Shown here: piece by piece, positions 4,987 to 33,135 of the stretch
Numbering within the stretch: the first letter of the stretch is position 1
Layout: every line of letters starts with the position of its first letter
Assembly: GCA_938049125.1 (NCBI GenBank)
Contig: CALICR010000154.1
Span: 1-33,135 of the forward strand
Source: an uncultured Clostridia bacterium
Lineage (GTDB): Bacteria > Bacillota > Clostridia > Oscillospirales > Oscillospiraceae
Length of the DNA stretch: 33,135 bases
Reading direction: 5' to 3'
Position numbers and translations under genes: made by a program
Notes under the pieces: model-generated
Databases searched by the model: none
Seen by the model: the letters and a program-made list of their open reading frames with translations, nothing else
Told to the model about the DNA's origin: nothing

Positions 4987-6675
4987 ATGGAAATTCAGGA
5001 ACGATACGAGCAGTGGGTCCGGGAGACCCGGGACAACGCGGAGCTCTCCGCAGAGTTGGCCGCCATCCGCGGCAAGGACGCGGAGATCGAGGATCGATTC
5101 TACCGCGAGCTGGAGTTCGGCACGGCGGGTCTGCGCGGCATTCTCGGCGCGGGTACGAACCGTATGAATGTCTACACGGTCGGACGTGCGACGCAGGGCT
5201 ACTGCGACTATCTGCGGGAGGCATCGGACGCGCCCTCTGTGGCGATCGCCCATGACAGCCGCCACAAATCCCGCGAATTTGCAGAAGAAGCGGCGTCCAT
5301 CTTCGCTGCCAACGGCATCCGCGTCCATCTCTATCCGAAGCTGATGCCGACGCCCTGCCTCTCCTTCGCCGTGCGCTATTTCGGCTGCACCGGCGGCATC
5401 AACATCACGGCGAGCCACAACCCCGCCGCCTATAACGGCTACAAGGTCTATGGCGGCGACGGCTGCCAGATCACGGAGCTTGCGGCGAAATCCATTCTCG
5501 GAAAAATCGGCGCGACGGACTGCTTCACCGGCGTCCGCCGGATGCCTCTCGCTGAGGCGCGGGCGCAGGGACTGGTGCAGGATATCGGCGCGGACTGCGT
5601 CGAGGCCTATCTGACCGCCATAGACGGCGAGTCTCTGCTGCCGAAGGACGCGCCGCGGGAGCTCAGGATCGTCTATACGCCGCTCAACGGCGCGGGCATC
5701 AGCTGCGTGCCGGACTGCCTTGCGCGCAACGGCTTCCACAACATCACCATCCCGGCGTCCCAGCGCGACCCGAACGGCGATTTCCCGACCTGCCCTTATC
5801 CGAATCCGGAGATCCGGCAGGCGCTGGATGAAGCCATCGCCTGCGCGGAAAAATGCGGCGCAGAGTTTGTGCTGGCGACGGATCCGGACTGCGACCGTGT
5901 CGGCACCGCCATCCGGAAGGACGGTGAGTTCCGCCTCATCACGGGCAATCAGATGGGTGTGCTGCTGCTGGACTTCATCTGCCGCATGAAGCGGGAGCGG
6001 GGAACCATGCCGGAGCACCCCGTCGCGGTCAAGACCATCGTGACCACGAAGCTCTGCGAGCGGGTCGCGGACTATTACGGCGTCGAGCTGCGCAACGTGC
6101 TGACGGGCTTCAAATATATCGGCGAGCAGATCCGCGGGTTGGAGGCGCACGGCGAGACGGCGCGCTTCCTCCTTGGCTACGAGGAGAGCTACGGCTACCT
6201 GACCTGTCCGCAGGTGCGCGACAAGGACGCGGTCAACGCCTCGCTCCTCATCTGCGAGATGGTCTGCTGGTACAAGAATCAGGGACGCAGTCTGCTCGAC
6301 GGTCTGGAGGACATCTTTGCCCGCTTCGGCTACTATACGGACAAGGTCATGAGCTTCACCTTCGAGGGCGCCGCGGGCTTTGAGACCATGCAGGGCATCA
6401 TGAAGGCGCTGCGCGCCGACCCCATCCGCGAGGCAGCGGGCTTTGCTGTCGAAAGCTGTACGGACTACCTCGGAGACGACACCGGTCTGCCGAAGTCCAA
6501 CGTTATGCAGTATCACCTCACCGGCGGCACCGTCGCCACTGTGCGGCCCTCCGGCACGGAGCCGAAGCTCAAGGTCTACCTCTCCGTCTGCGGCGCGACC
6601 CGCGGGGAGAGTGAGTCGACCGTTGCAATCCTCTCGGATTTTTTCACGAAGTGGATCGACGCGCATCGGAACTGA
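4987..6675 (+). CDS. Phosphoglucomutase/phosphomannomutase-family phosphohexomutase
   Basis: 562 aa with an AGGAGG RBS. It has the active-site phosphoserine loop ITASHNPAAYNGYKVY, the metal loop ATDPDCDRVG, the sugar loop GYEESYGY and the phosphate loop RPSGTEPKLKVY. Confidence 0.92.
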   Translation: MEIQERYEQWVRETRDNAELSAELAAIRGKDAEIEDRFYRELEFGTAGLRGILGAGTNRMNVYTVGRATQGYCDYLREASDAPSVAIAHDSRHKSREFAEEAASIFAANGIRVHLYPKLMPTPCLSFAVRYFGCTGGINITASHNPAAYNGYKVYGGDGCQITELAAKSILGKIGATDCFTGVRRMPLAEARAQGLVQDIGADCVEAYLTAIDGESLLPKDAPRELRIVYTPLNGAGISCVPDCLARNGFHNITIPASQRDPNGDFPTCPYPNPEIRQALDEAIACAEKCGAEFVLATDPDCDRVGTAIRKDGEFRLITGNQMGVLLLDFICRMKRERGTMPEHPVAVKTIVTTKLCERVADYYGVELRNVLTGFKYIGEQIRGLEAHGETARFLLGYEESYGYLTCPQVRDKDAVNASLLICEMVCWYKNQGRSLLDGLEDIFARFGYYTDKVMSFTFEGAAGFETMQGIMKALRADPIREAAGFAVESCTDYLGDDTGLPKSNVMQYHLTGGTVATVRPSGTEPKLKVYLSVCGATRGESESTVAILSDFFTKWIDAHRN

Positions 6676-15867: not shown

Positions 15868-15888
15868 ATCAAATTGGGAGTATCAGAT

Positions 15889-18800
15889 ATGGAGTTTCAG
15901 AGAGAACACCCCCCGCTGATCAGTGTTGTGATGCCGCTTTTTAACACAGCGCAATTTCTGCCTGCCGCGCTGGAAAGCGTTCTGAACCAGACCTATCAGA
16001 ATTTGCAGGTCATCGTGGTGGACGACTGCTCTACGGACGGCAGCGCGGAGATCCTCGCGTCCTATGACGACCCGCGGCTGGAGATTTTCCGCATGGAAGA
16101 AAACAGCCATGTCTGCGCGGCCCGGAACGAAGGATTCCGCCATGTGCGCGGTGACTATGTTGCGACCATTGACAGCGATGATGTTTGGCTGCCCGAAAAA
16201 CTGGAAATGCAGCTGTCCTGGATGGAGATACATCCGGACTGCGGCGTCTGTTTTACCTGGAGCGATATGATCGATGAGAACGGCGCGCTGGCCAATCACG
16301 AGAATGCATGGTTCTATGAGATGTTTCGCCAGCCGAACCGGACGCAGCGGGAGTGGCTGCTGCATCTGCTGGAGCATGGAAACTGCCTGAATAACTCCTC
16401 ACCGTTGATGCGCCGCGCGGTATTGGACCAGGTGGGCGGCTACAACCTGACGCTTGTTCAGCTTCAGGATTTTGAGTATTGGATCCGCGTCGTTTCAAAG
16501 TTCCCAATCAGCGTTCTCCCGGCGAAGCTGGTGCAGTACCGCCGCGTGCGGGAGAATAACCGTTCGGTCAGTGCAAATAATGTGACCAATAAGCTCCGCA
16601 GCGAGAACGAGGAGATCTTTGTCTGCTCTCACTTCTTTGATTGGATCTCGGATGAGCTATTCTGCGAGCTGTTCCGTTCAGATTTTCATGATTCGAACGC
16701 TTCTGCGGCGGCAGAGCTGCAATGTGAACGGGTATTCCTGCTCCGACGTGCCTACTGTGCGCCGGAACCGTATCTTTCGAGGATGCAGATGCTTCTGTGT
16801 GAGCCGGAGACAACGGCGGTCCTGCGGGAAAACTATCACTATAGGCCGAAGGACTTTTATGGAGAGAATCGCGTTAAGCGCTATTTTGGCCGAGGTCTGC
16901 AGCTTCGCCAGCGCGAAGAAATCGAGATTGAGAAAGCGACCCTGTGCTTTGCGCTCCCGGATGGCGCGTCGGAGACCATCGAATTTGAAAAAGACCCCTA
17001 CGTCTACGAACGGGCGGGGGACCGACTCATATGTGACGCAAAGATTCCGGCTGGGGCGGTCGCTGTGACATTCCGGCCGATACAGTGCGGAAGCTGTATC
17101 CTCAGCGAACTGCATATCTGTGCCGATCGAGAGTCGCTTCTGGCGGAAGAGTTTACGTGCACCAGGATCGGGGACCACTGGGTCTATGAGGCGGGAAAAG
17201 ATACGATTTTTTATCCGCTGCCTGCGCAGGCAGAACGACTGACGGTCTCTATGCGGCGCACTCTGATTCGCGCAGAAAACGAGTTTCTGCTGGGTGCGGG
17301 GGAGCACGCTTTTCCGACGGAGCTTCAGGTATGCATGAAGCAAGCCAGGCAAACCCAGGAGGAGATGACGGAGCGGCACCGTGCGCGCCTCCGCACCATG
17401 GCCCAGGAGCAGCGGGAGCAGCGCCGCCGCATGAATGAGGCGCATCAGCAGGAGCTTGCACAGCTCCGGCAGGAGAAGGCGAACGTGGAAGGCGAGTGCC
17501 GCCAGCTCCGCGATACGGAAAACCGGCTCCTGAACGATCTTGATGCCATTCATCACAGCCGGTCGTGGCGCATTGCGCAGTTTTTCTCGAGAATTCTGCG
17601 CTTTTTCATCCCGATCGGAAGCAAGCGGGCACTGTTTTGCCGGATTTTGTGGATGCTTATCCGCCATCCCGTGATCTTCTTCCGGAACCTGACTCCGCGG
17701 AAGATCAAAAAAGCGCTCCGTATGATGCGTCGCGGCGACACAGAGGGCGTCCGCCTGCTGATGCGCGGCAAGGTGACGGGAGAACCTGCGCCATCCTCCA
17801 TTGTGACTGCGGTGCCGGAGCTGGCAGCCGTGGACATGCGGGAAAAGACGATTGATGATTATCAGCCGCTCACCGTTCCGCAGTGGGACGATCCGACGGT
17901 GTCCATCGTCGTCCCGGTCTACAACCAGTTCGAATTCACCTATCACTGCGTGGAGTCTATTCTGAAGCACAGCGGCGACGTGACCTATGAGATCCTCATC
18001 GCCAACGACTGCTCCACGGACCTCACCACGGAGATCGACAAAATCCTGCCCGGTGTCCGCTGCATCACGAACGAGCAGAACCTGCGCTTCCTGCGCAACT
18101 GCAACCGCGCGGCGGGCTTCGCCAAGGGCAAGTATATCCTCTTCCTCAACAACGATACCCAGGTACAGCCGGACTGGCTCCGGCCGCTGGTGACGCTCAT
18201 CGAGAGCGCGCCGGACGTGGGACTCGTCGGCTCCAAGCTGATCTACCCGGACGGCAAGCTGCAGGAGGCGGGCGGCATCCTCTGGCGCGACGGCTCTGCG
18301 TGGAATTTCGGAAACCGCCAGAATCCGGCGCTGCCGCAGTTCAACTATGTCAAGCAGGTGGACTACATTTCCGGCGCCGCCATTATGCTCTCCCGCAAGC
18401 TCTGGGAGGAGATCGGCGGCTTTGACGAGACCTTCGCCCCCGCCTACTGCGAAGACAGCGACCTCTGCTTTACGGTCCGGAAGCTGGGCTACCGCGTGCT
18501 CTATCAGCCGCTTTCCGTGGTCGTCCACTTTGAGGGCGTCTCCAACGGCACGGATACCTCCTCCGGACAGAAGAAATACCAGATCGAAAACTCAAAAAAA
18601 TTCCGCGAGAAGTGGGCAGAAGAGCTTGCAAAACACCCGGAAAACGGCGAAAATGTGTTTCAGGCACGGGATTATTCCTATGGAAAAAAGACGCTGCTCA
18701 TGGTGGATCACTATGTGCCGCAGTTCGACAGGGACGCGGGCAGCCGCACGGTCTTCCAGTATCTCAAGCTCTTTGTTTCGCAGGGCTTCAACGTCAAGTT

Positions 18801-19788
18801 CATCGGCGACAACTTTTATCAGCACGAGCCGTATACCACGGTGCTTCAGCAGCTGGGCATTGAGGTGCTCTACGGCCCCGAGTGCGCGGCACACTGGAAG
18901 GACTGGATCATCGACAATGCGGAGCACTTCGACTATGTGTTCCTGAACCGTCCCCACATTGCGCCGAAATACCTTGATTTCCTGCGGCTGTACACGCACG
19001 CCCGCATCATGTACTACGGCCACGACCTCGCCTTCCTGCGTGAGATGCGCGAATATGAGGTCACCGGCGACGCCTCCTTCCGTGACTCCGCCAAAGAGTG
19101 GATGCCCAAGGAGCTGGCGCTGATGCGCGAGGCGGACATGGCGTATTACCCCTCCTATGTGGAGGTGGATGAGATCCACAAGCTTGACCCGGATATCCGT
19201 GTCAAGGCGATTCCGGCCTACCTCTTTGAGAACGTCGAATGGGAGGGCTACGACTTCGCGGCGCGGAAGGACATCATGTTCATCGGCGGCTTCGGACACC
19301 GTCCCAATGTGGACGCGGTCAAGTGGCTGGCGGAGGACATCCTGCCCGCCCTGCGGAAGCTGCTGCCCGGCGTCAAGATCCATGTCCTCGGCTCCAACCC
19401 GCCGAAGGAGGTGCAGGCGCTGGCATCCAGTGACCTTATCATCGAGGGCTTTGTGACCGACGAGCAGCTTGATGCCTTCTACCGCGAGAGCCGGATTTCT
19501 CTGGTTCCGCTGCGCTACGGCGCGGGCATCAAGGGCAAGGTCATTGAGGCGATGCGCAATGGCACGCCGGTCGTGACCACGCCGACGGGTGCCGAGGGCA
19601 TCAAGGACGCCGAGTCGGTCATGGCAGTGGAGGAGACGGCGGAGGCGCTGGCAAAGCGCATTGCGGGGCTCTACAACGATGAAGCAGCGCTCACCGAGCT
19701 GAGCCGGAGGAGCGTGGAGTATGTGAAGAAGAATTATTCGCCCGCCAATGCAATTCAGGTCATCGGACCGGAATTTGATCTCACTTAA
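15889..19788 (+). CDS. Multidomain glycosyltransferase: GT2, unknown region, coiled coil plus amphipathic segment, GT2, GT4/GT1-like
   Basis: The ATG at 15889 has GGGAG 8 nt upstream, and I prefer it over the tracked TTG at 15874, giving 1299 aa.
- First GT2 domain: ISVVMPLFNTAQFL..VIVVDDCSTDGS..IDSDDVW.
- Heptad-like charged stretch: nt ~17355-17555 (QEEMTERHRARLRTMAQEQREQRRRMNEAHQQELAQLRQEKANVEGE), then SRSWRIAQFFSRI.
- Second GT2 domain: from ~17897 (VSIVVPVYNQ..ANDCSTD..LNNDT..EDSDLC).
- C-terminal GT4-like part: GGFGHRPNVDAV..EGFV..GAGIKGKVIEAMRNGTPVVTT. Confidence 0.85.
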   Translation: MEFQREHPPLISVVMPLFNTAQFLPAALESVLNQTYQNLQVIVVDDCSTDGSAEILASYDDPRLEIFRMEENSHVCAARNEGFRHVRGDYVATIDSDDVWLPEKLEMQLSWMEIHPDCGVCFTWSDMIDENGALANHENAWFYEMFRQPNRTQREWLLHLLEHGNCLNNSSPLMRRAVLDQVGGYNLTLVQLQDFEYWIRVVSKFPISVLPAKLVQYRRVRENNRSVSANNVTNKLRSENEEIFVCSHFFDWISDELFCELFRSDFHDSNASAAAELQCERVFLLRRAYCAPEPYLSRMQMLLCEPETTAVLRENYHYRPKDFYGENRVKRYFGRGLQLRQREEIEIEKATLCFALPDGASETIEFEKDPYVYERAGDRLICDAKIPAGAVAVTFRPIQCGSCILSELHICADRESLLAEEFTCTRIGDHWVYEAGKDTIFYPLPAQAERLTVSMRRTLIRAENEFLLGAGEHAFPTELQVCMKQARQTQEEMTERHRARLRTMAQEQREQRRRMNEAHQQELAQLRQEKANVEGECRQLRDTENRLLNDLDAIHHSRSWRIAQFFSRILRFFIPIGSKRALFCRILWMLIRHPVIFFRNLTPRKIKKALRMMRRGDTEGVRLLMRGKVTGEPAPSSIVTAVPELAAVDMREKTIDDYQPLTVPQWDDPTVSIVVPVYNQFEFTYHCVESILKHSGDVTYEILIANDCSTDLTTEIDKILPGVRCITNEQNLRFLRNCNRAAGFAKGKYILFLNNDTQVQPDWLRPLVTLIESAPDVGLVGSKLIYPDGKLQEAGGILWRDGSAWNFGNRQNPALPQFNYVKQVDYISGAAIMLSRKLWEEIGGFDETFAPAYCEDSDLCFTVRKLGYRVLYQPLSVVVHFEGVSNGTDTSSGQKKYQIENSKKFREKWAEELAKHPENGENVFQARDYSYGKKTLLMVDHYVPQFDRDAGSRTVFQYLKLFVSQGFNVKFIGDNFYQHEPYTTVLQQLGIEVLYGPECAAHWKDWIIDNAEHFDYVFLNRPHIAPKYLDFLRLYTHARIMYYGHDLAFLREMREYEVTGDASFRDSAKEWMPKELALMREADMAYYPSYVEVDEIHKLDPDIRVKAIPAYLFENVEWEGYDFAARKDIMFIGGFGHRPNVDAVKWLAEDILPALRKLLPGVKIHVLGSNPPKEVQALASSDLIIEGFVTDEQLDAFYRESRISLVPLRYGAGIKGKVIEAMRNGTPVVTTPTGAEGIKDAESVMAVEETAEALAKRIAGLYNDEAALTELSRRSVEYVKKNYSPANAIQVIGPEFDLT

Positions 19789-27720: not shown

Positions 27721-28482
27721 ATGGCAAAGCGCATTCTCCTTCTTCTCCTCTCTGCGGCCTCGCTTGCTTATTATCTCTGGATCGGCAGCAACAATGCATT
27801 CTCCATGTCGCTGCTCTCCGTCTGGCCTGCGCTCTCGGTGCTGTTTCTGGGGCTGGCGCTTCTGCCGAAGCGGGTGCGGCTGCCGCGCTGGCTGCGCTGG
27901 ACGCTGCTTGTATTTCTGCTGCCTGTGCTGATCGCAGCGGGCTGCATCCTCGGCGGCATGACGGCCCGGGGCGGGGAAGACTTCGACTGCCTCGTCGTGC
28001 TGGGTGCGGCGCTGAACGGACGGGAGCCGTCGGCAGCGCTGGAGGCTCGGCTCGAGACGGCGGCGGACTACCTCGACGCGCATCCGGAGACGGACGTCAT
28101 CGTCTCCGGCGGCCAGGGCGTCTCCGAGGTCGTCAGCGAGGCGGAATGCATGCGGGACTGGCTCCTGCGCCGCGGCATCGACCCAGGGCGCATCCGCATG
28201 GAGGACCGCTCCACGGATACGGCGGAGAACCTCCGTTACAGTCTCGCCATGCTGCCCGGCGAGGGTCTGCGCGTCGGCATCGTCACGAGCAATTTCCACG
28301 TGTTCCGCTCCCTCGGCATCGCCCGGGCCGAGGCCGGGGACCGGCTGACGCTCCGCGGGCTGGCAGCTCCCTTTTCACCGCGGCTGTTGCCCCATTTCCT
28401 GCTGCGGGAGCTGTGCGCCGTGGGCGCGGATACCTTGCGGGGCCGAATGTGCTGGTTTTTATGCATTCCTTTCAAAAGTTGA
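27721..28482 (+). CDS. DUF218 (YdcF/ElyC/SanA family) membrane-anchored protein
   Basis: 253 aa. N-terminal TM helices are followed by DCLVVLGAALNG, VIVSGGQG, SEAECMRDWL, EDRSTDTAENL and IVTSNFHVFRS, which are DUF218 hallmarks. Confidence 0.82.
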   Translation: MAKRILLLLLSAASLAYYLWIGSNNAFSMSLLSVWPALSVLFLGLALLPKRVRLPRWLRWTLLVFLLPVLIAAGCILGGMTARGGEDFDCLVVLGAALNGREPSAALEARLETAADYLDAHPETDVIVSGGQGVSEVVSEAECMRDWLLRRGIDPGRIRMEDRSTDTAENLRYSLAMLPGEGLRVGIVTSNFHVFRSLGIARAEAGDRLTLRGLAAPFSPRLLPHFLLRELCAVGADTLRGRMCWFLCIPFKS

Positions 28483-28504
28483 AGGAAAGACTATATTTTG
28501 TAGG

Positions 28505-28533
28505 TTGACACGGGACGAAAAAAAGGATATAGT
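28505..28533 (+). promoter_or_regulatory. Near-consensus sigma-A promoter driving the riboswitch leader
   Basis: TTGACA (28505-28510), a 17-nt spacer, then TATAGT (28528-28533). Confidence 0.7.
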
Positions 28534-28544
28534 AGAAACGAAAA

Positions 28545-28740
28545 ATCAAGAGCACCAAGTGCCGCCGGTGCTGCCTGAGGGCCGGCGGAGAATAGTGAAT
28601 CGGGTGAGATTCCCGAACGGTACCGCCACTGTGAGCGCGGAGACCGTACACAGGGCGAAAGCCGGTCATTGGGGAGCCATTCCCTGAGAAGGCCGTGTAC
28701 GGTCGGTGAGGCGCGAGTCAGGAGACCTGCTTGGAGGCAT
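28545..28740 (+). promoter_or_regulatory. Cobalamin (B12) riboswitch aptamer
   Basis: The conserved core is AATAGTGAATCGGGTGAGATTCCCGAACGGTACCGCCACTGTGAGCG (GCCACTG at 28624-28630). The B12 box AGTCAGGAGACCTGC lies at 28716-28730. A candidate P1 pairs CCAAG (28555-28559) with CTTGG (28730-34). A promoter lies upstream and a terminator downstream. Confidence 0.85.
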
Positions 28741-28796
28741 TTTCCCCTGCGCGCTTTGCGAGTTATGAGGTGCGTGGTCGATTTTGTGACGCAGAA

Positions 28797-28841
28797 AAAC
28801 GGCTGCGGCAACGATGGTTGCCGCAGCCGCTTTTGATTTTT
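28797..28841 (+). terminator. Rho-independent terminator, the likely expression platform of the B12 riboswitch
   Basis: 12-bp stem GGCTGCGGCAAC (28801-28812) / GTTGCCGCAGCC (28817-28828) with loop GATG, then GCTTTTGATTTTT. Confidence 0.85.
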
Positions 28842-28979
28842 CAGTGAATACGGGCGCGGAACTTCCCCCATTCCCGCCCGCACGTGCGGTGGGGCCGGCG
28901 GTACCGGTCCCCCTGAGATGCCCGGCGTCCCGCTTTCCCCCAGCGAGCGCCGGGCACAGAACCGAAACAGGTGAATGCG

Positions 28980-29129
28980 ATGCAGCAGAACATGGATATC
29001 TCCCCCCAGGAGGCAAAGCTGATCCGGCTCATCCGCTCGATGACGTCCGGAGAGCTCCTGATCATTGTAAAAGATAATCGACCGATCCGTGTGGAACAGA
29101 TCGAACGGGGCATCCCGCTTTCAACGTGA
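28980..29129 (+). CDS. YezD/DUF2292-like small protein (49 aa), not in the supplied ORF track
   Basis: The ATG at 28980 has AGGTGA 6 nt upstream, and the TGA is at 29127-29129. It translates to MQQNMDISPQEAKLIRLIRSMTSGELLIIVKDNRPIRVEQIERGIPLST. The pattern x-G-x-hydrophobic-IIV-x-D-x-x-P/V-x-x-V/I-E resembles the YezD family (..YGSV.I.VQDGKVVQIE..EK.R). Confidence 0.55.
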   Translation: MQQNMDISPQEAKLIRLIRSMTSGELLIIVKDNRPIRVEQIERGIPLST

Positions 29130-29178
29130 GTACCCCGGATTGTGCAGCAGGGACCGACGGAAGAACCGAGGCCCGGGA

Positions 29179-29233
29179 GGCGGAGGCACAGCAGTGCTCC
29201 GCCTATCGGGCGTTTTTTCAATAAGCGCCCGAT
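29179..29233 (+). terminator. Two tandem hairpins, a possible weak terminator or processing structure
   Basis: The first hairpin pairs GGCGGAG (29179-85) with CTCCGCC (29197-203). The second pairs ATCGGGCG (29205-12) with CGCCCGAT (29226-33) and has a T-rich loop. No clean T-tract follows either stem. Confidence 0.3.
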
Positions 29234-29299
29234 TTAATTCTGTTCTGCGCCTCTGCGGCGTTTGAGATAGCAAAGAAAATGGAGAAATGGAGGAAAACC

Positions 29300-32200
29300 A
29301 TGAAGCACAAAAATTTGACGCGGCTGCTTTCGCTGCTGCTGACGCTGGTGCTCCTTTGTTCCGTCTGCCTCCCGGCCTATGCGGCCGGACTGGAAGCAGT
29401 GGGCGAAGCCCAAATGACGGATTCGGCTGCCACGGAGGACCTGGCCGGGACGGAACCGGCTGATACGGAAGCGGCTGATACGGAAGCGGCTGATACGGAA
29501 GCGGCTGATACGGAAGCGGCTGATACGGAACCGGCTGATACGGAACCGGAGGAGGAGCTGCAGAATACCGCAGTTCCGCAGGCGGCATGCACCGTCTCGG
29601 TACTGGAATCTGCCCCCACGACGGCAGAGACGACGACCGGCAGCATTTACACGCTCGATCTCTCGACGGTCTTTACGGACAGCGAAGGGCACACCCTCAG
29701 CTATACGCTGAGCGGCGGCGACTTCGGTCAGCAGACCAAGATCAAGGACGGCGTGCTCTATTTCTCCGTCGGCGCGGCGGGCGACTATACGCCGACCATC
29801 ACTGCGACCTGCGAAAGCGGCGCGACGGCGGCCTATACGCCGACCATCACGGTCAAGGCTGTGAGCGAGGGAAGCCAGGAGCAGTACGGCTACGACGAAA
29901 CACCGGCAAGCTCCGTCACGGTCTATGTGACGGTCAACAGCGACGGCATTCCCATCCGCGGCAACGACGAGAAGCAGACCATCCTTTCCCATCTCAAGGT
30001 CACGGTGCCCTACTTTGACCTGGCGGATTACGGTCTCGGCGATTTCCATCGGTATCACACGGAGAACGGTCAGGGCTCCTATGTGGATGACGTGATCGTG
30101 GAGCGGCCCACGGCGCTGCACCTCTACATCTACCTGCTGGAGCACTACTACATGGGCCTTCCGGACAGCGCCTGCTGCAAGGGCACGTCCGGTGTGCTGG
30201 ACTACGCGACCGAGACGGACGTCTACGACATGAACGGCGACCCTGCCTTCACCGGAACGAACAAGGCGCTGAACATCACCGGCTCCGCCACCTCTCTGTA
30301 TATGCAGCAGTTCTGGGGTCATGACGAAAACCTCATGTACTACCGCAACCATGTCTACCCGCTTATGTCGGCGGGCTGGGGCAGCACGGCGGACTACATC
30401 CTCCTCTCGGATGATGACACCATCGATGTGGCGATGTTCTCCAACTGGAACTTCTGGAGCGACGGCGGCGCATTCGCCCGCTTCGACAAGGACGCCTACC
30501 AGGGACGCGCCGGCGCAGCGCTGGCAGTCCAGACGCTGAAGTATGACACCAGATCCGTTGCGGACGGCGGCACCGAGAGCTTCACGCCGATCTCCGGTCT
30601 GAAGGTCGGTCTCTACGATGCAAACTGGAAGCTGCTTCAGGAGCTGTCCAGCGACAACGGCAGCTACACCGTTACGCTTCCGGAGACGGCGGGCGAGTAT
30701 TACCTCCTCGGCATCGACCCGAACCACGGCACCATGGATGCGCGCTTCGCCTCCGCGACCGCACGTGTCACGGTTCTCGGCGACGAGAATCCGGATCCCT
30801 TCGCGGACACCCTCTTCACCAGCGTGAACTATGCGGACAACAGCGGCAGCACCGCAGTCCTCGACGATTTCACGGCGCTGACCGGCGGCATCAGCGACAC
30901 GGACGGCCTGGGCAACGAATATAAGAACCTGCCCGCCTACACCTTCAAGATCCCGCAGTCCCTGATCGGCAATACGGTCAGCTTCGTCTTCCCGGCGGAG
31001 CAGGGACTTCAGCCCTACGGCATGAGCTGGTCGAAGGGCGATGGCTTCGGCTATGACGCGCCGAACCTCACGCTCAAAACGAATGACGACGGCACGCAGA
31101 CGCTCTCCTTCGACATCACTGAGGACTTCGTCGGCACCGGCAAGTATATCGTCTTTGAGAACGACGAGTTCAAGGGCTTCCTCGGCGTCACCTTTGAGCT
31201 GGGCGGCGCGACCGGCGCAGTCGCCGTCACCGGCGTCAGCCTCGACCAGACCGCGCTGAATGTTCCGCTCGGCACAGCGCCGCAGCTGACCGCAACGGTC
31301 ATGCCAGAGAACGCCACCAACAAGGATGTCGCGTGGAGCAGCAGCAACAAGACCGTTGCGACGGTCTCCGAGAGCGGCGTCATCACTCCGGTGAGCGAGG
31401 GCGCCACGATCATCACCGTCACCACCATGGACGGCAGCTACACGGCGACCTGCCGCGTCACGGTCGTGGACGACCGCACGCCGAACCTGAGCGCGGACGG
31501 CTACTATGAGATCACCTCCGCACAGCAGCTCAAGTGGTTTGCCGACGCGGTCAACAGCGACAAGAGCAGCGCAAACGCGCGGCTGATGAACGACATCGAC
31601 CTGTCCGAGGTGTGCAGCGCGGAGAACGGCTCCTGGGAGCCGATCGGCACCGCAATGAAGTATATTCAGTACTCCGGCACCTTCGACGGGCAGGGACATA
31701 CGATCAGCAACCTCTATATCAATGAGAAGCTGAGCAACACCGCCAACGGCGAGACCAATGACCGCGCCCTCTTCGGCAGGGTCGAGGGCGGCACGATCAA
31801 GAACGTGACCGTGACCGGCTCCGTGACGACCAACGCGCGCTATGCGTCCGGTCTTGTGGGCTATGCCATAAAGGCCACCATTGAAAACTGCCATACAAAC
31901 GTCGCAGTGACCGGAACGGGCACCTGGGGCGCGACCGGCATCATCGGCTTCGCAGCGGCGGGCGTGACCATCCGGAACTGCTCCAACAGCGGCCCCATCC
32001 ACGGTGCGGGCACCTATGTTGCGGGCGTCGTCGGCAGCGGCTACGAGATTACGGTGGACGGCTGCTACAATGACGGCGAGATCGTCTGCAACGATTTCTA
32101 CGGCGAGGGCGCAGTCGGCGGCGTCATTGGCTACCTCAGCTCCCCCAAAGCGAAGATCAGCAATTGCTACAACCTCGGCACCGTGACCACGGATGACTCG

Positions 32201-33103
32201 AATTACCGGGTCGGCGGCGTGGTCGGCATGTTCTACTTCTACTCCGGCGGCACGGCGCAGATCTCCTCCTGCTACAATGCGGGCATGATCAACAGCAAGA
32301 GCAGCAAGGCAGGCTCCCTCGCGGGCAGCGTGGAGGACAGAAACGGCAAGCTCACGGGTCAGACGGCGGAGAACTGCTTCTACCTCCTCGGCACCTGCAC
32401 GTCGGACTTCTTCGGACTTTCGTCCGTGACGGAGGCGTACCTCCGCAGCGCGGCTGCGACTGCGCAGCTCAACGGGGAATCCGGCAGCGCCTACAAGCGC
32501 GGCACCGCGCACCCCATCCTGAGCTGGCAGCCGGACGAGCCCGTTGACACCACCCCGGAGAAGAACGAGCAGGGCTTCTATCAGCTTACCTCTGCGGACG
32601 ATCTCCTCTGGTTTGCGGACAAGGTCAACAACGGCGGACTGAACGCCATCGACGCCGTTCTGATGAACGACATCGACCTCAGCTCCGTGGAGAACTGGAC
32701 GCCCATCGGCAGCTCCGATACGAAGTACCTCGGCACCTTTGACGGACAGGGCCATGCCATCACCGGTCTGACGATCCAGCAGGGCGACGTGTCGGCGACC
32801 CTCACGCTTGGCCTCTTCGGCTATGCCGGCAGCGGCGCGGCACTCAAGAACTTCACGCTGGACGGCGGCGTGACCCTTACCACCTCGCAGCAGATCGCGG
32901 GCGCAGCCGGCGGCATCGGCTCGGTGGTCGGGCATGCCAACGGCGCGACCATCACGGACGTGCAGAGCAGCGTTTCCGTCACGGTCAGCGCACCCTCGAC
33001 CAAGAACGTGGGCTATGTGGGCGGACTCGCCGGCATGACCACGAAAGCAACGCTGCTGCGCTGCGGCACCTCCGGCACGCTGACGCTTACCCTGACGGGC
33101 AGC
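29300..33103 (+). CDS. Large secreted cell-surface protein, 5' complete and 3' truncated (Big_2 Ig-like domain plus two beta-helix/GLUG-like modules)
   Basis: The ATG at 29300 has GGAGG 6 nt upstream. The frame stays open for 1268 codons up to the adapter junction; it is missing from the track because it has no stop.
- Signal peptide: MKHKNLTRLLSLLLTLVLLCSVCLPAYA/AG.
- Tandem repeats: (A/P)ADTE.
- Big_2-like domain: ~31225-31468 (VTGVSLDQTALNVPLGTAPQLTATVMPENATNKDVAWSSSNKTVATVSESGVITPVSEGATIITVTT).
- Two modules begin Y(Y/F)xxTSAxxLxWFAxxVN...NDIDLS...GTFDGQGHxIxxL, as seen in IgA-protease/GLUG-type surface proteins. Confidence 0.85.
29456..29545 (+). repeat. Six tandem copies of a 15-bp unit (SCGGCTGATACGGAA) inside the surface-protein gene
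   Basis: The units run 29456-70, 29471-85, 29486-500, 29501-15, 29516-30 and 29531-45. They are identical except for the first base (C/G). In frame they encode PADTE-(AADTE)x4-PADTE. Confidence 0.95.
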
Positions 33104-33135
33104 AGATCGGAAGAGCACACGTCTGAACTCCAGTC
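33104..33135. other. Illumina TruSeq adapter sequence at the contig end (assembly artefact)
   Basis: AGATCGGAAGAGCACACGTCTGAACTCCAGTC is identical to the start of the standard TruSeq read-1 adapter. It abuts the end of the window. Confidence 0.95.

Follow-up and report, generated by a model that had tools for sequence, protein, structure and literature searches.

A cobalamin riboswitch-linked giant surface protein of gut Oscillospiraceae carries a conserved, unannotated core domain with a candidate role in corrinoid capture

Corrinoid competition shapes gut communities, and extracellular corrinoid-capture machinery is so far known only in Bacteroidota (BtuG, BtuH, BtuJ); for Gram-positive Firmicutes a review of September 2026 states that extracellular cobamide capture "remains entirely uncharacterized" (PMC13616437). 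BtuH consists of N-terminal Ig-like PKD domains and a globular B12-binding domain (PMC8941943). The B12-binding domain of BtuJ is DUF4465, for which binding was shown with eight divergent members (PMC13398666; reviewed in PMC13616437), and DUF4430 is the C-terminal domain of transcobalamins (PMC4350170). Here we describe the end of a 33,135-nt contig (CALICR010000154.1, the window) from an uncultured bacterium of the Oscillospiraceae, where a Cobalamin riboswitch is followed by a small YezD-like open reading frame (ORF) and by a giant gene for a secreted protein. An earlier sequence-only reading of the window had proposed that this protein captures corrinoids through a DUF4430-like segment. 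Our analysis shows that the segment lies inside a conserved core that is a distinct family of about 200 amino acids (aa), and we consider it most likely, with a probability of roughly 0.6, that the giant protein is a cell-surface protein made at corrinoid scarcity which takes a direct part in extracellular cobamide capture.

The protein resembles the DUF4465/BtuJ proteins (Bacteroides thetaiotaomicron BtuJ1/J2; PMC13398666, PMC13616437) in being secreted, displayed on the surface and encoded in B12-riboswitch loci. The heads are unrelated, however: that of the window protein is a 200-aa core with Ig-like and beta-sandwich flanks, whereas DUF4465 is an augmented beta-jellyroll with demonstrated B12 binding and the core is a putative binder. 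The likeness to BtuH lies in the use of Ig-like spacers to present a globular head on the surface of a gut commensal, in the B12 locus and in the analogous accessory role in capture that we propose, while BtuH is an outer-membrane lipoprotein and the core family is held by dockerin or SLH domains on a Gram-positive wall. Homology of the core to BtuH was considered and rejected, as there was no PDB sequence match and BtuH was absent from the top-50 lists of Foldseek. BtuG, a surface beta-propeller B12 binder of Bacteroides, is a functional analogue only, as a surface scavenger that feeds a transporter; the core is not homologous to it and has a predicted fold other than a propeller, and its partner importer would be of the ECF type and not the TonB-dependent BtuB. 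With DUF4430 and the beta-domains of transcobalamin, intrinsic factor and haptocorrin the core shares a beta strand, a helix and then the pattern MY..N..P...G.S..Y.L.DGD.I, and it co-occurs with true DUF4430 genes behind B12 riboswitches. Unlike DUF4430, which comes as a small secreted protein or lipoprotein of 180-220 aa, the core has two insertions and about twice the length, is borne by a giant anchored scaffold, fails the Pfam model and shows similarity below threshold.

The B12 riboswitch that had been read upstream of the giant gene is real, as shown by a full-model Rfam match (Table 1). In the terminator of its expression platform, 10 of the 13 stem pairs are G-C and the stem is followed by CTTTTGATTT. 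Other than the promoter ahead of the riboswitch, no promoter-like site was found in 28300-29500, which leaves none in 28534-29500. To place this arrangement in the family, 80 loci of GTDB species representatives (numbered with L below) were scanned with an nhmmer profile that was seeded with two Rfam-verified Cobalamin riboswitches and iterated twice. A same-strand riboswitch match was present at most 750 nt upstream of the module gene in 38 of the 80 loci and, as an operon leader 2-10 kb upstream, in a further 11; counted over the 73 loci with enough upstream sequence, about 40 have one within 750 nt. The remaining 31 loci gave no match, and 7 of these are without upstream sequence. Rfam at its gathering score confirmed the riboswitch in 15 of 17 loci tested, including two that the nhmmer tally had missed (L031, L062); the candidates in L037 and L054 fell below that score, and the plus-strand riboswitch of L010, at 30.6 bits, stayed short of the gathering score (31.5). 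No small ORF intervenes in more than 30 species, where the module gene comes directly behind the riboswitch. Clostridial genomes hold perhaps 5-15 Cobalamin riboswitches, so that a given 750-nt stretch would contain one by chance in well under 1% of cases. The linkage was also seen in family members of 500-680 aa without GLUG repeats (L035, L045, L050, L072, L075) and thus follows the module, not the scaffold. Two divergent Cobalamin riboswitches stand back to back in one intergenic region of L010 (5250-5453, minus strand, and 5589-5845, plus strand), and such pairs, one of which drives the module gene, are likewise found in L015, L016, L027, L028, L029, L030, L034 and L057.

The B12 link is further supported by the neighbouring genes. 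Behind the giant gene of L023 come a second riboswitch, a true DUF4430 protein (E about 1e-19 for this subfamily), CbiQ, a double ABC ATPase and an ECF S component, and in L064 the module giant gene is followed by a GLUG giant, DUF4430, CobT, CobU, CobS and CobC; true DUF4430 neighbours score 70 bits. The second, divergent riboswitch of L010, L016, L027 and others drives an operon headed by a 620-690-aa half-DUF4430 protein (E 2e-8 to 9e-5) and continuing with a 315-aa protein (faint squalene-cyclase-like, alpha/alpha toroid match), MoxR, DUF58 and a transglutaminase. A half-DUF4430 protein and a toroid-like protein in one operon recall a split transcobalamin.

DUF4465 was found in 9 loci, as the next same-strand gene in 8 of them and within the module protein itself in L054. 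Two of the neighbours, analyzed with Pfam, have a signal peptide, DUF4465 (E 7e-36 and 1.5e-38), GLUG repeats, SLH or dockerin and, in one case, Big_2; they are the scaffold of the window protein with a different head, and their stalks are 34% identical to that of the window. The two kinds of Oscillospiraceae giant are thus alike in having a scaffold-borne head, with or without Big_2, together with GLUG and SLH or dockerin, in genes that are adjacent and on the same strand. In L054 (8855-15412) both heads occur in one 2186-aa dockerin protein, with DUF4465 at residues 101-283 (E 1e-34), a natural fusion in which the core module is joined to a known B12-binding domain. The window protein itself has no DUF4465 (PF14717) match in the 1267 residues present. 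Taken together, regulation and neighbours place the module firmly in a corrinoid-acquisition system; with the riboswitches of the family and its DUF4430, DUF4465, ECF and Cob neighbours, the B12 link of the giant gene is better founded than it was in the sequence-only reading, and surface corrinoid capture, with presumed corrinoid binding, is the most likely role in this family context.

A search with the N-terminal region of the giant protein (threshold E<=0.001) returned 582 homologues. Searched alone against 1.84 billion representatives, the core matched 519 representative clusters at 50% identity, 390 of them at E<=1e-10, and it occurs in more than 80 GTDB species. Common to the family is a unit of Ig-like domain, core and beta-sandwich, which we refer to as the module, while the C-terminal part varies: dockerin alone (about 500 aa), an additional domain and dockerin (667-692 aa), SLH repeats (846 aa), or giant stalks that measure 1700-3100 aa, contain cadherin-like, Big_2, PQQ-like or GLUG regions and end in SLH or dockerin. 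The closest full-length relative of the window protein (L025, 1013 aa) has a dockerin at its end and other relatives have SLH domains. Conservation of the core is far above that of its flanking domains, with 44 of 204 columns invariant in 59 sequences and the invariant motifs QY.YDE, ERPT.LH, FWGHDENLMYYRNH and GWG.T.DY.LLSD.DT.D.AMF. The invariant positions hold polar or aromatic residues (W, H, D, E, N, Y, R), which would suit a specific binding site, and the core is the candidate ligand-binding head. No family model in Pfam (2025) or NCBIfam (2026) matched the core when the protein, the isolated segment and 10 homologues were scanned, the PDB, searched by sequence with the single sequence as well as the family profile, gave dockerin and PKD matches only, and in the literature searched we found no description of the core family or of riboswitch-linked dockerin/SLH proteins.

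The hosts are almost all Oscillospirales metagenome-assembled genomes from gut samples, and the clusters are mostly from Oscillospiraceae. Cultured carriers are Faecousia intestinalis CLA-AA-H192, Brotocaccenecus cirricatena CLA-AA-H272, Hominiventricola filiformis CLA-AA-H276 and Clostridiaceae bacterium Marseille-Q4145. Family loci also turned up in bins labelled as non-Firmicutes (L014, L047 and L048, Coriobacteriaceae; L053, Alloprevotella; L083, Bacteroidaceae); since they are 62-76% identical to Oscillospiraceae copies and the one product examined, that of L014 (apparently P0002), has a dockerin, these are probably mis-binned contigs and not real cross-phylum occurrences. Many family members end in a type I dockerin, as in cellulosome-type cohesin-dockerin assemblies, and cohesin proteins are also encoded in operons (L009); they differ from cellulosomes in a cargo other than a carbohydrate-active enzyme and in the control of the operons by B12 riboswitches. 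Short dockerin-type members in L009 (2673-4811 and neighbours) and L008 lie in operons with a cohesin protein, a Flg_new-repeat protein and a conserved unannotated protein of about 685 aa, which suggests a cohesin-dockerin surface complex unrelated to carbohydrate degradation.

In the window, the ORF of the giant gene opens with the ATG at 29300 on the plus strand, 5 nt after a GGAGG Shine-Dalgarno sequence, and runs without a stop to the window end. As had been read, it encodes a secreted giant (1268 codons are present, 29300-33103), it starts 170 nt behind the stop of the YezD-like ORF at 29129, and the peptides quoted earlier (SSVTVYVTVNSDGIPIRG, TALHLYIYLLEHY, ITGSATSLYMQQFWGHDENLMYYRNHVYPLMSAGWGSTADYILLSDDDTIDVAMF) are all in its translation. 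Coding on this strand is backed by the homologues; an opposite-strand ORF of 1294 aa (29234-33118) was rejected as a gene and is a high-GC shadow, because homology and domain matches are all on the plus strand. The domains of the protein are listed in Table 1 with the features of its leader.

Table 1. Features of the riboswitch-led unit and the giant gene in the window
Feature	Position	Strand	Basis
Sigma-70-type promoter (TTGACA, 17 nt, TATAGT) of the riboswitch-led unit	28505-28533	+	11 of 12 consensus positions
Cobalamin riboswitch aptamer (RF00174)	28541-28748	+	Rfam 90.7 bits (gathering score 31.5), E 2e-21, full model
Intrinsic terminator of the riboswitch expression platform (OFF switch)	28800-28839	+	13-bp stem (28800-28829), then T-run
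YezD-like (DUF2292-like) ORF, 49-52 aa	28971-29129	+	Pfam DUF2292 E 0.0019, below cut-off
Conserved RNA element, stem-loop overlapping the 5' half of an intrinsic terminator	29150-29218	+	conserved in at least 15 loci
Sec signal peptide, residues 1-28 (MKHKNLTRLLSLLLTLVLLCSVCLPAYA, then AG; cleavage between AYA and AG)	29300-29383	+	read from sequence
Acidic TEAAD linker, residues about 51-83	29450-29549	+	Tandem Repeats Finder score 179, 97% matches
Ig-like (PKD/Big_9/cadherin-like) domain, residues 88-186	29561-29857	+	AlphaFold2 all-beta, pLDDT around 90
Conserved 204-aa core, residues 187-390	29858-30469	+	conservation (59 sequences), AlphaFold2 model
Beta-sandwich, residues 391-493	30470-30778	+	AlphaFold2 strands at model residues 304-406
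Unannotated domain, residues about 505-640	30812-31219	+	common to the 667-aa homologue subgroup
Big_2, residues 642-720	31223-31459	+	PF02368, E 1.5e-14
GLUG-motif repeats, residue 730 onward, at least 2 long repeats	31487-33103	+	PF07581 in 3 stretches, E 4.5e-6
Illumina TruSeq adapter read-through (artefact, outside the gene), 32 nt	33104-33135	.	sequence AGATCGGAAGAGCACACGTCTGAACTCCAGTC

The N-terminus, of the form MKKR-hydrophobic-A.A, is common to the homologues. Behind the signal peptide, the TEAAD linker is encoded by 6.7 copies of a 15-nt tandem repeat, the length of which likely differs between strains. In homologues, weak matches to Big_9, PKD or Cadherin_4 were found for the Ig-like domain and to PPC, SpaA or CarboxypepD_reg for the beta-sandwich. 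Residues 505-640 have no Pfam match, and the homologues of the 667-aa subgroup span 95-100% of the query. Of the Big_2 and beta-helix scaffold proposed earlier, Pfam confirmed Big_2 and showed GLUG repeats, and with its signal peptide the protein belongs with the Big_2/GLUG surface giants of Firmicutes. The GLUG region presumably forms a beta-helix stalk; it shares 34-41% identity with the stalk of L025 and with those of the DUF4465-headed giants of L010 and L034. Structure models were built with AlphaFold2 on the 59-sequence alignment. The model of residues 88-510 had a predicted local distance difference test score (pLDDT) of 86.3 and a predicted template modelling score (pTM) of 0.79; a Foldseek search with this entire module (423 aa) yielded nothing but strings of Ig domains with low template modelling (TM) scores, and the core was therefore re-predicted alone (pLDDT 82.8, pTM 0.84, one disordered loop at core residues 164-178).

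The resemblance to DUF4430 proposed for the segment is weakly supported. By hhalign, WGHDENLMYYRNHVYPLMSAGWGSTADYILLSDDDTID of the core aligned with CG..SGWMY.VNG.FP..G.S.Y.L.DGD.I of DUF4430 over 32 columns in the register proposed earlier, with NLMYYRNH.YP...DY.LLSDGDTID (core residues 153-190) against GWMY.VNG.FP...Y.L.DGD.I. With a diverse core alignment the match had P 0.0028 and a probability of 11%, and in a second run P 0.00094 and 22%; none of the controls, 59 column shuffles and a reversed alignment, reached the score of 26.2 (maximum 18.3). The first comparison, made with low-diversity alignments, had covered LSDGDTI only at 4% probability and became better after 50%-identity representatives were added. 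In greedy alignments the long helix (ERPT.LHLYIYLLERYY) and the ITGS strand before it also come in DUF4430 order. Foldseek with the core against 350,542 PDB chains gave nothing at E<=0.001. None of its top four hits was significant: they comprised haptocorrin 4kki, two rat transcobalamin chains (8ixt, 8ixu) and the human transcobalamin beta-domain (5no0). Over the top hits, 3u7z included, E was 0.24-2.4 and TM 0.18-0.37; 59 columns at 22% identity aligned with the isolated 5no0 beta-domain. At rank 11 stood 3u7z, which we take to be a bacterial DUF4430 structure, although PDB searches did not confirm this, and the remaining hits were beta-grasp/ubiquitin-like folds. A true DUF4430 sequence and the DUF4430 profile found neither transcobalamin nor 3u7z in the PDB by sequence; because a genuine DUF4430 profile also misses transcobalamin, the absent sequence match of the core is weak evidence against membership. 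The core is not a DUF4430 member by any accepted criterion, and that it is a much-elaborated, remote relative of DUF4430 is conceivable at somewhat under even odds.

The gap between the YezD-like ORF and the giant gene, in which only weak hairpins had been seen, holds a conserved RNA element with an intrinsic terminator. In the window the stem-loop is GGAC CGA CGG-AAGAA-CCG AG GCCC and the terminator is GCCCG, a variable hairpin, CGGGC and T6 at 29213-29218; the consensus reads GAACUGACGGAAGAACCGARGUUCGG, a variable GC hairpin, GCCGGGC and U6. Two alternative pairings can be drawn. In the terminator, GUUCGG pairs with the downstream CCGGGC (lower stem 96.7% paired, 2 compensatory pairs), and in the alternative P1 helix GUUC pairs with the upstream GAAC and closes the small stem-loop (96.7% paired); covariation is limited because the sequence is so conserved. 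From its sequence the element looks like a conditional terminator with a terminator/antiterminator-like layout, and it matches no Rfam family. It was found at the same position in L020 (3357-3425), L025 (9716-9789), L049 (8434-8498), L052 (767-838), L061 (9125-9200), L087/L088 (9750-9816), L040 and L070, and in every case downstream of a Cobalamin riboswitch. A metagenome scan gave the full motif in 8 of 120 matches, the rest being mostly chance; of these 8 contigs, seven are loci L093, L123, L138, L152, L159, L167 and L201, and in 7 of 7 contigs with upstream sequence the element lies 3' of a Cobalamin riboswitch and a YezD-like ORF, with varying downstream genes.

The YezD-like ORF likely starts at ATG 28980, which has an AGGTGA Shine-Dalgarno sequence. 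Homologues between the riboswitch and the module gene or operon were found in L025 (9548-9697), L070 (9337-9459), L049 (8265-8396) and L061 (8950-9102), with the same placement in L040 (4516-4632), L020 (3169-3306) and L052 (599-742), and also in 7 metagenome contigs. The micro-ORF precedes varied genes, namely module giants, HNH_repeat small proteins and other secreted proteins. No PDB relative of it was found, and DUF2292 is not described in a B12 context in the literature searched. The micro-ORF may encode a regulatory peptide or RNA-binding factor, and this peptide is a candidate effector of the second element. The order riboswitch, YezD-like ORF, element and module gene is also present in L025, L070, L049, L061 and L040, and this synteny across species supports the earlier placement of the giant gene in the riboswitch-controlled unit. 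With no promoter-like site between the element and the gene, transcription of the giant gene most likely begins at the riboswitch promoter and passes two conditional terminators.

Alternatively, the riboswitch could control the YezD-like ORF alone, with transcription stopping at the terminator around 29170-29218, and the giant gene could have an unrecognised promoter of its own and encode a general surface or S-layer-associated protein. A real T6 terminator with covariation does lie between the two ORFs, and a general surface locus would fit the cell-wall glycopolymer genes further upstream in the window (Lgt, phosphoglucomutase, glycosyltransferases, an ABC ATPase, a GHMP kinase, nucleotidyltransferases and DUF218), none of which is B12-related. 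Nevertheless this explanation is very improbable: 29219-29299 contains no promoter-like site, the overlap of the 5' half of the terminator with a conserved alternative stem-loop is the signature of a conditional terminator, the gene order is kept in at least 5 other species, and the riboswitch directly precedes the module gene in the species mentioned above. A separate question is whether the core is a genuine, if divergent, member of the DUF4430/transcobalamin beta-domain family that carries two insertions; it would then bind cobalamin at the nucleotide-loop face, like the transcobalamin beta-domain. The hhalign match at the GWMY.VNG...DGD.I block above its shuffled and reversed controls, the order of helix and ITGS strand, the top Foldseek hits with 3u7z at rank 11, and the fact that true DUF4430 members are themselves too divergent for PDB sequence searches to reach transcobalamin or 3u7z all argue for it. 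Against this stand the missing Pfam match, the low HH probability, the poor E-values and TM-scores over about 60 aligned residues, a core of twice the DUF4430 length and the generic beta-grasp/ubiquitin-like folds among the other hits, and we judge such membership a little less probable than its opposite.

The protein could also be induced by B12 limitation and sit on the surface while its core does not bind corrinoids but acts beside the true binders DUF4465 and DUF4430, either as an adhesin (to B12 producers, mucus or food particles) or as an enzyme that frees B12 from carrier proteins such as haptocorrin or intrinsic factor, or from other cells. Regulation and context fit this equally, GLUG and Big_2 giants are typical adhesin-like scaffolds, and a metal or catalytic site could arise from the clusters of invariant His, Asp, Glu and Asn residues (GHDEN, RNH, ERPT.LH). 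Moreover, in L054, L010 and L006 the core is joined to or beside the genuine binder DUF4465 and does not replace it, which suggests a division of labour. On the other hand, no enzyme or adhesin-head family was matched in Pfam, NCBIfam, PDB sequences or Foldseek, the sole recurring likeness, although weak, is to the B12-binding transcobalamin beta-domain, and the module is the only head in many family members and mirrors the DUF4465-headed paralogues; we consider a non-binding core, the main rival explanation, unlikely. Several observations do weigh against a direct part of the giant protein in cobamide capture. Neither the window protein nor its isolated segment matched PF14478 (gathering score 23.8 bits) at E<=1, 10 homologues gave no match at E<=10 either, and the core has no significant match to any proven B12 binder by PDB sequence search or Foldseek. 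About a third of the family loci are without a riboswitch within 10 kb upstream, and B12 riboswitches control non-uptake genes too. A conserved terminator separates the riboswitch unit from the giant gene and makes co-transcription conditional, the C-terminal anchor of the window copy is missing at the contig end, and fusion or adjacency to B12-binding domains could equally mean a complementary, not an identical, role.

The missing anchor has a technical cause. Since the last 32 nt of the window are adapter, the contig end and the truncation of the giant gene are an assembly artefact of untrimmed reads, and the terminal 'RSEEHTSELQ' (the last 10-11 'codons') is not protein, being encoded by the adapter. 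The 3' end was not recovered: an exact-match scan of the genome contigs returned nothing, and for the last 450 aa of the protein the best homologue is only 49% identical. Elsewhere in the window, 15874-19788 encodes an ordinary-looking but unusually large protein of 1304 aa in which two GT2 domains and one GT1 glycosyltransferase domain are fused; it belongs to a cluster for cell-wall glycopolymers that includes Lgt, phosphoglucomutase, a YidC-like/CDP-glycerol transferase fusion, GHMP kinase, NTP-transferase-HAD and SIS.

To return to capture as the preferred role, the ORF and its domains, the riboswitch, the family, its conserved riboswitch linkage and its B12-related neighbours are shown by the analysis, and from them we infer B12-repressed expression of the window gene, surface anchoring of its truncated copy and corrinoid binding by the core. 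Transcription would start at the promoter at 28505 and be gated first by the Cobalamin OFF riboswitch, and the transcript would then pass the YezD-like ORF and the second, terminator/antiterminator-like element before it reaches the giant gene. At low corrinoid the riboswitch terminator would not form and the second element would be read through. The giant protein would be exported by its Sec signal peptide and held on the wall, with the N-terminal head (Ig-like domain, core and beta-sandwich) presented on a Big_2 and GLUG stalk, which in relatives would be anchored through dockerin-cohesin contacts or by SLH domains. The head would bind corrinoid and pass it to DUF4430 proteins and an ECF-type importer, as is expected of the DUF4465 (BtuJ) heads on the same scaffold. 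More tentatively, and as a possibility we would put at a minority share, the core may be a corrinoid-binding domain family not described before, whose kinship with the transcobalamin beta-domain would be very remote at most. Together with DUF4465 and DUF4430 on cohesin-dockerin- or SLH-bound giant stalks it would form a B12-regulated extracellular 'corrinoid-capture complex' of gut Oscillospiraceae, a Gram-positive counterpart of the BtuG/H/J relay of Bacteroides, under a two-stage leader made up of the Cobalamin riboswitch and, behind it, a new terminator/antiterminator RNA element that accompanies the YezD-like micro-ORF.

The analysis yields a widespread unannotated family with domain boundaries and a conserved regulatory leader, and its role is directly testable because four cultured carriers are available. 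As a surface cobamide-capture accessory the giant protein would be new in its head domain and in its anchoring. If the core does bind corrinoids, it would be a new B12-binding module, and cohesin-dockerin assemblies would extend to vitamin scavenging.

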